A stretch of DNA of 64,000 nucleotides. Source: Nitrososphaerales archaeon. Its GTDB lineage: Archaea > Thermoproteota > Nitrososphaeria > Nitrososphaerales > UBA213. Where the stretch lies: positions 1 through 64,000 of the forward strand of contig CBDAOC010000013.1 of NCBI GenBank assembly GCA_965197925.1, read 5' to 3'. Below, piece by piece: positions 11,461 through 16,566 of the stretch. Under the pieces are notes generated by a model. That model was not told the DNA's origin. It did no database searches and saw nothing but the letters and a program-made list of their open reading frames with translations. The number at the start of each line of letters is the position of its first letter. The stretch's first letter is position 1. The position numbers and the translations under genes are program-made.

Positions 11461-11779
11461 CGGCTGTGTAGAAACCATAGATTTTAGCCTGTTGTGCACG
11501 GAATTGCACCATGAGATCAATGTATCACATATAACTCCTGCCTATGCATGAAAGAGTCAAGGTATGTCAAACTTGCTAGAACCATGCTCAATGTTTTGAT
11601 AAAGGCCAGGATACCCCTGTACATACACAAGAAGAGCAATCATATCTACATTGTATGGCAGCATACAATCCTTCTGGTATTAAGGCAGTATGAAGGGAAG
11701 AGCTACAGGAGGTTTGTGGAATGGCTGCATGAAGCATACTACCTGAGGATCTTTCTACATCTAGATATAGTACCCCATT
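11461..11779 (+). mobile_element. 5' remnant of an IS (same transposase type as 6510..6750), truncated by the adjacent IS5
   Basis: ORF from 11548 MKESRYVKLA...LVLRQYEGKSYRRFVEWL...DIVPH broken at 11779; putative left end CGGCTGTGTAGAAACC. Confidence 0.7.
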
Positions 11780-12653
11780 CAACTCATCTCAAAACCCTAC
11801 AATACATCAAAAATGATGCAGGATTAACAAATGCCAGATAGTTTTCTGCCGTTCTTTCATACCTGATTCTTGTTCTGTGAAATCCATTCTTGAGTCATGC
11901 AAGGAATCTCTCAACTACAAATCTTGTCTTGTTGTAATGTTTGCAATCATTATTTTGCAAGATGAACTTGGAATTTATTTTGTATGGGATGCAACATGCA
12001 ATATTTCTATCCCACAAATACATTCTGATGTATTTTGCATCATTTTGTCTGCATAAACTGATTCTATCTGTTGTATTGAATCATCATCAAGATAGTCTGA
12101 AATTGATCCTGTAACATCTATGCATTTTGTACTGTCATGTTCATTTGCCGGACTCAACAGTATGGATATTGGAAATCCGTTACTCTCTACTGCGGCATGT
12201 ATTTTTGTACCTGTTATTCTCTTGAATCCATTATATCCAGTTACATTGCCCCTTTTTTATCAGGAATGGATGAAGAGTCAACTGATATTTTTTGTAGATT
12301 AATTTTGCCAGATTTATGTGCTGAGTGAATAGTACGTGATAGAATCTTTTTCCAGATTCCTTTTTGTTGCCATTTGTTTAACCTTCTGTTTGCAGTAGAA
12401 TCATCACCATATCTTTTTGGCATATCGTCCCATCGGCATCCAGTAGTTAGAACATGGATTATTCCGTTAATGATTTTTCTATCATCATCCCTAGGCCTGC
12501 CAGTTTTTGCATGTGGTGGTATGTGTGATTCCATCATACTCCACTGTTTGTCTGATAATTCTTGGAATTTCATAAAATAATTTTAGATGTCGCTATTCAT
12601 AGATCTAAATGGCCGCTAAAAATTGTCTAAATGGTTAGTTTTGAGATGAGTTG
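11780..12653 (-). mobile_element. IS5-family element (orfA/orfB), inactive; forms the inner boundary of the duplication
   Basis: Perfect 16-bp TIR CAACTCATCTCAAAAC; orfA 12241..12573; A6G4 slip site; orfB has frameshifts and a TGA; no target duplication. Confidence 0.93.
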
Positions 12654-13650: not shown

Positions 13651-14645
13651 TCAAATGATGATCTGAGGCGGTACTCCCATTAACCTGATAGATGTCCTGT
13701 ATAGTACTCCATTTCGGTTGAATTGTATTATCAACACTTCACCTATAGAGTATCGTGATAATGCAGCTAAAAGATCTTTCATTTGCTTTACTTCAACTTC
13801 CCCTATTTGAGTTAGTATATCACTCCGCCGTAAACCTGCTTTGTATACAGGACCATATACAGGACCATAACGTGAAATTCCAACCATTAGCACTCCCGAA
13901 TCCCGCAATGCCAAATCAGCAATTGATTTATTCCTGAGCAAATTCTCCTCGCAACAGTTGGATTGAGATTTATTCCTGAGATTCCAAGCCAGGGTCTAAT
14001 CACTTTTCCCTTTTCAAATATCTGCTCGGTCACATTCTATATGGTGTTTATTGGTATAGCAAACCCTACACCTTGTGCATGTGGTATCATAGCTGTATTG
14101 ATGCCAATTACATTGCCATTCAAATCAGCTAGGGGACCACCACTATTCCCAGGGTTGATCGCTGCATCAGTTTGAATTAATCCCTCGAAAACAAAATCCA
14201 AACCAGGAAGTGGCCTTCCAAGAGCACTGATGACTCCTCCTGACACGGTAGGACCACCTGGTAAACCTAACGTGATCCCAATTGCTAGTGCTATTTGTCC
14301 TACCTTGAGTTTCTCTGAATCACCGAGCTCAGCTGTGGGAAGATTGTTTGCTCCTACCCTCACTACTGCTAAGTCTGTTGCAGGATCTCCTCCGATGACT
14401 TCACCAGCCAAAGTTCTCCTATCTTTTAGATTGATCCAGACTCTGTCCGCACCATCGATAACGTGATTGTTAGTAACTGCATAGCCCCTGGCATCTACAA
14501 TTATTCCAGATCCTGTCCCTTCTTGTGGTACAAGACCAAATCTCGCGTCCATGGTGAGTTTTTTACTATTAATGCAGACCACACTTTCGCTCAGCCTTTC
14601 AACTGCATCGGTTATCTGATTCTCAAGAAACGTAAGCGTCATCAT
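13651..14645 (-). pseudogene. HtrA/DegP-like trypsin serine protease with PDZ domain, disrupted
   Basis: GSGII, TNNHVI, DLAV, IQTDAAINPGNSGGPL; TAG at 14037-14039 followed by RPWLGI; frameshift into the PDZ part (GPVYKAGLRRSDIL). Confidence 0.9.
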
Positions 14646-15526: not shown

Positions 15527-15660
15527 TGGCGGGCCCGGAGGGCTTCGATCCCTCGACCTCTGGCTTAGAAGGCAAGCGCTCTATCCAAACTGAGATATGT
15601 TCCAATCATTCACATATCACTTCAGGGCTTTTTTGGCAAGCCTTACTGAGCTACGGGCCC
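15527..15660 (-). tRNA. tRNA-Arg(UCU), CCA encoded, with 56 nt of intron in the D-loop (two tandem BHB introns, 15643..15620 and 15619..15588)
   Basis: Spliced product GGGCCCGTAGCTCAGTA|TGGATAGAGCGCTTGCCTTCTAAGCCAGAGGTCGAGGGATCGAAGCCCTCCGGGCCCGCCA folds as a 78-nt cloverleaf with anticodon TCT. Confidence 0.92.
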
Positions 15661-15708
15661 GTAACCATGTTTGAGCCACTATAATTATAACTTTGTCCAG
15701 TATTCTAA

Positions 15709-16566
15709 TCAACTTTTATTATTTCTGCCATAACAGTAGAGGTATTGTTGTGCATAACCTGCATACTCACCAAAATATTCACGCATTCTTAGTGAAATTG
15801 TTCTATATACACTTGGAGCAATTTTTTCATAATCAAACTCTTTCTTGAACATATGTGAATAATACTTCATAATTGCTCTTGCAATCCAAATATCTATTGG
15901 AAATGAATCAAGCTTTTCTAATGAAAAAAGAAGAATACAATCCGCAACCTTATTGCCTATTCCCAGAATATCCATCAGCTCATTCTTTGCATTTTCATAA
16001 TTTCTGTGTTTAAGATGATCAAAATCTATTTCTCCATCTAACACTGCCTTTGCTGCTCTCTTTATGAACCTGGCCCTGTAACCTACGCTGCACCTGCAAA
16101 GTTCGGTTATTCCTGCTTTTGCCAGTCTTTTGGGTTCTGGGAAAGTGTAAAAATCGAATTTGTCATAGACCAACTTCTTTCCAAAATTAATACTAATCTT
16201 TGTAAGCATTTGCTTTATCATAGAAATGTTAGTATTGGTAGCACAAATAAACGAGATTAAGCATTGATACGGGTTCTGCCTCATTATACGTAATCCTTTC
16301 ATCTTTGATAACGCATCTTCAATAATAGGATCTTTCGATATCTTCTTTGAAATATTATACAAATCATCTTCAAGTCTAAAAAATTTCTTAAGATCAATGC
16401 TTGCAGGATAAGAAAAATATTCTAATCCATGGTTACCTGCTGATATTTTGACCACATTGCTTCCTTCAATACCATACCAGCAATCACCCAATTTATTCCA
16501 GAGAAAGACCTGACCGCTTTCAATTGTAAGGTCAAGATTCAAGTACGGAGCCTTAGCCAACAGCAC
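15709..16566 (-). CDS. ogg: 8-oxoguanine DNA glycosylase (OGG1-like, HhH-GPD)
   Basis: TIESGQVFLW, GLRIMRQNP, GYRA, LGIGNKVADCILLF, FPIDIWI, YAGYAQQYLY. Confidence 0.9.
   Translation of the reverse strand: MLLAKAPYLNLDLTIESGQVFLWNKLGDCWYGIEGSNVVKISAGNHGLEYFSYPASIDLKKFFRLEDDLYNISKKISKDPIIEDALSKMKGLRIMRQNPYQCLISFICATNTNISMIKQMLTKISINFGKKLVYDKFDFYTFPEPKRLAKAGITELCRCSVGYRARFIKRAAKAVLDGEIDFDHLKHRNYENAKNELMDILGIGNKVADCILLFSLEKLDSFPIDIWIARAIMKYYSHMFKKEFDYEKIAPSVYRTISLRMREYFGEYAGYAQQYLYCYGRNNKS

Follow-up and report, generated by a model that had tools for sequence, protein, structure and literature searches.

Two abutting BHB-type introns predicted to share one helix strand in the D-loop of an archaeal tRNA-Arg(UCU) gene

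Nested multi-intron pre-tRNAs have been described in the Thermoproteales (Sugahara et al. 2007; Tocchini-Valentini et al. 2009, both as cited in PMC3978253), as have transposed tRNA introns (Fujishima et al. 2010, as cited in PMC4033280 and PMC4090602). The original prediction for the locus considered here took multi-intron tRNAs to be known mainly from that group; this is too narrow, since the tRNAscan-SE 2.0 preprint also names the Thaumarchaeota as having multiple non-canonical introns. A D-loop location also has precedents: in Korarchaeum cryptofilum tRNA-Trp an intron follows base 17 (entry in the PMC8450103 supplement). Ordered splicing of several introns in one archaeal tRNA is thus already known, and the gene described below adds a new arrangement of such introns, the new elements being mutually exclusive motifs that are both available at the start, an exon of zero length between the introns, and exon-like ends of the second intron.

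The gene lies on the minus strand of the window (the whole stretch of DNA that was analysed, 64,000 nucleotides of contig C13 of genome G000), where a search with ARAGORN and Rfam misses it in its unspliced form and gives no hit at all. Its D-loop carries a 56-nt insert at position 17/17a that reads as two bulge-helix-bulge (BHB) introns, 24 nt and 32 nt long, directly adjoining one another. The features are as follows.

15660..15527, minus strand: tRNA-Arg(UCU) gene, 134 nt unspliced
15644..15660, minus strand: exon 1, positions 1-17; positions 1-16 are invariant in 6/6 alleles
15646..15649, minus strand: exon TCAG, positions 12-15, 5′ strand of the intron 1 central helix; its first two bases are shared with the D-stem
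15620..15643, minus strand: intron 1, 24 nt, in the order 5-bp hairpin, CTGA, AG; 22-27 nt in other alleles
15622..15625, minus strand: shared CTGA strand, either the 3′ strand of the intron 1 central helix or the 5′ strand of that of intron 2
15588..15619, minus strand: intron 2, 32 nt, in the order 7-bp hairpin, TCAG, TT; 24-45 nt in other alleles
15590..15593, minus strand: second TCAG, 3′ strand of the intron 2 central helix; GCAG in G008
15527..15587, minus strand: exon 2, position 17a to the 3′ end, with anticodon TCT at 15569..15567
15641..15650, minus strand: direct repeat copy 1, 10 nt, across the exon 1/intron 1 junction; 8/10 identical to copy 2 in G000
15585..15594, minus strand: direct repeat copy 2, across the intron 2/exon 2 junction; equals the intron-free D-loop of relatives
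15683..15696, minus strand: predicted promoter, a TATA-like box and a purine-rich BRE-like run, 23-36 nt upstream of the tRNA
15709..16566, minus strand: upstream neighbour, an 8-oxoguanine glycosylase-like gene (TIGR00588, E 8.5e-53, below the curated cut-off), a synteny marker that lies outside the mechanism

The coordinates, the hairpin stems (GGCTT/AAGCC in intron 1 and GATATGT/ACATATC in intron 2) and the bulges (TAA, AGT and TTT) are as originally described. That description also had a single CTGA serving both motifs, and this holds as well: in the RNA, CUGA can pair with the exon UCAG or with the UCAG of intron 2, and in G000 both central helices have 4/4 Watson-Crick pairs between 3-nt bulges. 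When both introns are removed, the predicted mature D-loop is obtained and ARAGORN calls tRNA-Arg(tct) in five of six alleles (the sixth is cut by a contig end), the spliced tRNA having the same length as that of intron-free relatives; the terminal CCA is not conserved in relatives. We put the probability that the insert consists of two abutting BHB-type introns sharing one strand at roughly 0.9.

The upstream TATA-like and BRE-like element presumably acts as the promoter, an assignment for which we rely on the general archaeal consensus. The TATA-like element is common to 6/7 two-insert loci examined; besides G000, it is found upstream in G005, G008, L103, L109 and L112 (L numbers denote loci). 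The glycosylase-like gene precedes the tRNA in 12/15 loci examined. Elsewhere in the window, short ORFs at 11548-12573 read in translation like transposase fragments, and at 13651-14645 (minus strand) an HtrA-like protease domain (14037-14645) is followed by a separate short PDZ-like ORF, as if one gene had been split by a stop or a frameshift.

BHB-guided splicing routes through the G000 gene were enumerated with 3 of 4 central pairs allowed. A single two-step route has 4/4 Watson-Crick pairs in both steps; it removes intron 2 (7-bp stem and two outer pairs) and then intron 1 (5-bp stem and one outer pair). Among 2000 dinucleotide shuffles of the insert, no matching route was found at stems of at least 5 bp; lowering the minimum to 3 bp gave ten, and admitting G-U pairs gave 42. 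In the reverse order, with intron 1 out first, the remaining helix has 2/4 pairs, both G-U, in five alleles and 1/4 in G008, so intron 2 would be trapped. With one four-base strand shared between the motifs, the downstream intron would thus have to leave before the upstream one.

The same enumeration bears on another reading, in which the 56 nt are one intron that is excised whole, by way of an unusual fold or of a register shifted within the direct repeat, and AG^U is never cut. Wherever one insert is present the other is too, and the direct repeat makes the borders of the insert ambiguous, both as such a reading would have it. No one-step BHB route for the 56 nt exists, however, even at 3/4 pairs, and on that ground one-step excision by a BHB motif was rejected; moreover, the 3-nt spacing from CTG(A/G) to hairpin 2 is kept in 6/6 alleles. 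A single intron is accordingly an improbable reading.

The comparison across relatives rests on nine family genomes (G000, the genome of the window, to G008), in six of which the gene was located. Both inserts are present in G000, G003, G005 and G008, and the D-loop has no insert in G002 and G006. The gene was not found in G001, G004 or G007; the G004 and G007 contigs end in the upstream gene, and the G001 contig has no tRNA in the roughly 150 nt assembled after the glycosylase-like gene before its end (C44:14600-14801, L169), the tRNA of G000 starting 48 nt after the stop codon. Of 13 metagenome loci, four have both inserts and nine have none, and with identical alleles from different collections counted once there are six distinct two-insert alleles. 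Across the order, four of 401 genomes show the two-insert pattern, all within this family. A search for 0-, 1- and 2-intron alleles among relatives had been proposed at the outset, and it returned the first and the last; with patterns that allowed no mismatch, a one-intron allele appeared in 0/401 genomes of the order and 0/13 metagenome loci. Genomes with the same exon sequence are placed in Ca. Nitrosomirales by PMC10811736, which mentions neither tRNA nor introns, and we infer that G000 belongs there too.

The six alleles keep the same 3-nt spacings in spite of variable loops. In their alignment the two folds have 98.9% and 98.3% of their cells paired, a share that drops to 12-60% once the alignment is slid, and in the central helices 24/24 and 23/24 cells are paired. 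The CTG of the shared strand is invariant and its fourth base is A or G; G008 has an A-G mismatch in the intron 2 central helix, as does a contig of RNA run X2. Two compensatory pair changes occur in hairpin 1 and the central helices have one-sided changes only; because 16-20 of 500 shuffles of these six related sequences reach the observed values, support from covariation is modest.

The RNA data are assembled contigs of four runs. Runs X1 and X2 yielded contigs with two further two-insert variants, unspliced and at a depth of about 5, possibly of DNA origin, and the differences of the X1 variant within the gene fall in loops and bulges. No joint that skips either intron is present among the matches listed in the run contigs, which counts neither for nor against splicing, as such libraries say nothing on small spliced RNAs. 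The window sequence is found unchanged and in one piece in X3 and X5 contigs, and these runs may be its source.

Ordered splicing was part of the original prediction, and the dead end that follows if intron 1 leaves first is present in 6/6 alleles; that the fold itself dictates the order is not supported. In the isolated D-arm at 37 C, the fold with intron 2 paired and the D-stem intact is predicted to win in 5/6 alleles, by about 20- to 120-fold in four and 2-fold in one, and the preference is reversed in G008. In the whole unconstrained G000 RNA, on the other hand, intron 1 pairing has a predicted probability of 0.63 against 0.04 for intron 2. When the acceptor, anticodon and T arms are enforced, intron 1 pairing is favoured in 6/6 alleles at 37 C (ratio of intron 2 to intron 1 pairing 0.01-0.9), and across full precursors its predicted probability at that temperature is 0.25-0.79. 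Neither folding result is decisive, since the arms-enforced model pairs the 3′ strand of the D-stem with the variable loop and tertiary contacts are ignored. Models of the isolated D-arm back the idea that the D-stem enforces the order and those of the whole RNA do not; we regard the order as constrained by the logic of the pairing; the folding models do not show it to be enforced.

Intron 2 had also been called a full BHB. Its outer CC/GG pairs, invariant in 6/6 alleles, have a predicted probability of at most 0.03 and compete with hairpin 1, so the term overstates the case. In a strict hBHBh′ test intron 2 has these two possible outer pairs and intron 1 has one; on these predictions the intron 2 motif is probably of the relaxed hBH kind.

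One RtcB gene and two EndA genes are present in G000. The first EndA has crenarchaeal catalytic subunits as its closest matches (2cv8, E 2e-41), and its alignment to that subunit takes in the specific loop and the His that is Ala in 3ajv; the second is a weak match to beta-subunit models. By homology, then, the G000 enzyme appears to be the broad-specificity two-subunit type able to cut relaxed, non-canonical motifs, and EndA of this type is described as cutting D-loop introns and relaxed motifs (portions of PMC3241643 and PMC3239211).

The best explanation of the locus is that the inserts are likely introns cut by EndA, intron 2 leaving first and intron 1 second. The precursor would fold in two ways, with CUGA paired either to the UCAG of intron 2, which leaves the D-stem free, or to the UCAG of the exon. 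Starting from the first fold, cleavage by EndA at AG^U and UU^U, followed by RtcB ligation of intron 1 to exon 2, would give a 102-nt intermediate (with CCA). Once CUGA had switched to pairing with the exon UCAG, a second pair of EndA cuts would fall at UA^A and AG^U, leaving RtcB to seal the mature D-loop. The bar to early release of intron 1 would probably be the D-stem together with tertiary folding, or else poor cutting of AG^U where that site runs straight into hairpin 2. Several points count against this sequential route. Predicted folding of the full precursor favours intron 1 pairing, and because relaxed motifs are cleavable by this type of enzyme the dead-end cut looks chemically possible. 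The rare strict outer pairs, the G008 mismatch, the weak covariation and the missing one-intron allele weigh on the same side. On balance we lean slightly towards a sequential route with a ligated intermediate.

The true constraint may be narrower than a strict order of introns, namely that UU^U be cut while the CUGA of intron 1 is still tethered. Three cuts and one ligation would satisfy it as well, and the ligated 102-nt intermediate of the original prediction is not logically required. A three-cut route would use the same two motifs with CUGA as a switching guide strand; in any order that cuts UU^U while intron 1 is attached on one side, both pieces would fall out and RtcB would join the exons once. 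Both folds are predicted to coexist, and each offers just one bulge flanked by helices on both sides. EndA loop mutants are reported to cut a relaxed motif at one site only (an experiment within PMC3241643), so single-site cuts can occur, and by our reckoning 4/6 cut orders would be productive, which would explain why the intron 1 fold has not been removed by selection. Yet wild-type enzymes of this type are reported to cut both sites of relaxed introns (passages of PMC3239211 and PMC3241643), and published nested archaeal cases are described as stepwise in the relevant portion of PMC3978253. We hold the three-cut route to be a tentative alternative.

A further alternative is that the gene is dead or unspliced and that AGA is read by another tRNA, either an unassembled copy or an intron-free Arg(UCU) on contig C16. 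The gene has a U-C mismatch in its anticodon stem and a T-loop that starts with A, and C16 does encode an Arg(tct) gene. Both oddities, however, are common to intron-free relatives; the exons are invariant except at position 17 while the insert loops vary; the upstream TATA-like element is conserved; and a second archaeal-type Arg(UCU) gene was not found in G000, nor was a second copy in any of the four two-insert genomes (4/4). As for C16, it is a tailed-phage contig and probably a binning contaminant. Sequential splicing of a functional gene remains the preferred reading, and a dead gene is very improbable.

The mismatch lies within 15561-15574 (minus strand), and the A stands in place of T at position 54 of the T-loop (15548-15549, minus strand), as it also does in the Thr, Met and Lys tRNAs of G000. 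C16 (150,385 bases; L174, L175) carries terminase, portal and head protease genes, a tyrosyl-tRNA synthetase, a 4902-aa ORF and, by ARAGORN, 28 intron-free tRNA genes; the Arg(tct) gene on it is the other one of the assembly. AGA makes up 7677 of 17095 Arg codons (45%) in the G000 open frames of at least 300 codons with C16 excluded.

Most of the 40 tRNA loci examined in G000 have introns. Arg(UCG) has a single intron at 17/17a, the same site as the Arg(UCU) pair, and in the eight other intron pairs of this genome 6-31 nt of exon separate the introns. Arg(CCU), with three, is at C18:22161-22290 (minus strand), its predicted introns of 13, 12 and 31 nt being separated by 7 and 6 nt of exon. On the same contig (269714-269859, minus strand), tRNA-Trp has two introns, of which the canonical one is 59 nt long and has words that we take to resemble box C/D motifs. 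A script call of two introns in Pro(UGG) was reduced by hand to one 40-nt intron. The tRNA-Ser(GCU) gene (C19:514076-514226) was for a time a candidate second abutting pair, and was dropped when eight relatives pointed to a later start and one acceptor-stem intron; so read (C19:514097-514226, plus strand; L127-L135), it has a 31-nt intron at the acceptor stem's end, present in 7/9 family genomes, and just upstream of the gene G000 and several relatives have a short stretch that resembles the 5′ end of the tRNA. In G007, a 3′ fragment of tRNA-Arg(GCG) on C207 (120-400, L166) lies apart from the full gene on C137, as if left by an integrated element, and C27 (L138) has an RNA polymerase B subunit match in a 2385-aa open frame, about twice the length in the other ten genomes, which suggests a fusion of that subunit with the next.

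We can now return to the described systems. Like the nested Thermoproteales cases, this gene has several BHB introns in one tRNA, interdependent motifs that imply an order, and a two-subunit EndA in the same genome. In the nested cases, though, the last motif stays masked until the other introns are gone, which makes the order fail-safe. Here both motifs are free to form at the start; sharing one strand they are mutually exclusive, and taking them in the wrong order is a dead end. No exon sequence at all (0 nt) separates the two introns, against at least 7 nt in multi-intron genes annotated in the PMC8450103 supplement; the archaeal v2.0 difference file there, a subset of predictions, contains no abutting pair in five of the eight supplement parts that span it, the shortest intervening exon in these being 7 nt. 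In the literature searched, which did not extend to the primary nested-intron papers, we met no description of two tRNA introns with no exon between them. Aeropyrum pernix pre-tRNA-Thr(UGU) (as treated in part of PMC3241643) and the K. cryptofilum tRNA-Trp share with this locus the region or site, the 3-4-3 geometry and the competition with the D-stem. Each, however, has one intron per site with a central helix made with the exon, whereas for intron 2 here the "upstream exon" strand is supplied entirely by intron 1.

There is also a likeness to twintrons in that processing of one intron cannot finish until the other has been handled. A twintron is an intron within an intron, with group II/III and fungal mitochondrial cases. 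In this gene intron 1 is uninterrupted and intron 2 begins at, and abuts, its 3′ cut, and the chemistry would be that of protein-cut BHB motifs, not self-splicing. With the transposed introns the pair has in common that non-canonical introns were gained recently in a lineage rich in introns; unlike those, neither intron has a look-alike elsewhere in G000, and the ends of intron 2 resemble the host exon junction.

These ends bear on the origin of the pair. The 10-nt direct repeat that flanks the insert has the sequence of the intron-free D-loop and is perfect (10/10) in three of six alleles (G005, L103 and L112); four of its bases are needed for pairing and the rest have no obvious need. In an accepted set of 31 other G000 introns (script score at least 36, intron 1 included, Pro(UGG) dropped), 29 have an A two bases before the 3′ cut and two have TG. 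Intron 2 alone has TT there, the same as the exon bulge of intron-free relatives. No 16-mer of either intron is shared with any other place in G000; intron 2 has one 15-nt match at C19:36376, where no tRNA is located, and viral contigs gave 0 matches to the introns. An intron that inserted into the 3′ splice site of an earlier intron, as first proposed, is possible, but intron 2 ends that look copied from the exon junction and the missing one-intron allele speak against it. Ends that copy the junction, with no recurrence elsewhere, instead favour duplication, and the sequences suggest that intron 2 arose by duplication of a splice junction rather than by arrival of a foreign intron.

In a tree of RpoB and EF-2 from 12 genomes, the two-insert G003 groups with the intron-free G002 (88/86), so that two changes are needed; a single gain of the pair is not rejected (p-AU 0.079). 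A more speculative, and doubtful, proposal joins these strands. Intron 2 would be a collapsed duplicate of the gene's own junction (the start of exon 2, a hairpin and the end of exon 1), the precursor would be a two-state RNA switch with one guide strand for three cut sites, EndA and RtcB would process it by three cuts and one ligation, and the pair would be lost as a unit by recombination across the 10-nt repeat. If true, this would show the birth of an intron by junction duplication.

What surprise there is in the gene is limited, its splicing chemistry and the notion of splicing several introns in order both being established already. Because genes of this kind escape ARAGORN and Rfam, the genomes of the lineage look as if they had no tRNA for their commonest Arg codon. 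How non-canonical tRNA introns arise is a question on which the exon-like ends of intron 2 have a bearing. The gene is a compact natural substrate, 134 nt long and available in six alleles, on which to study the choice that EndA makes between two mutually exclusive motifs; the known nested cases cannot serve for this, since in them the last motif stays hidden until the other introns have gone. It also asks whether ligation must separate successive cuts, and here a wrong choice would destroy an apparently essential tRNA.
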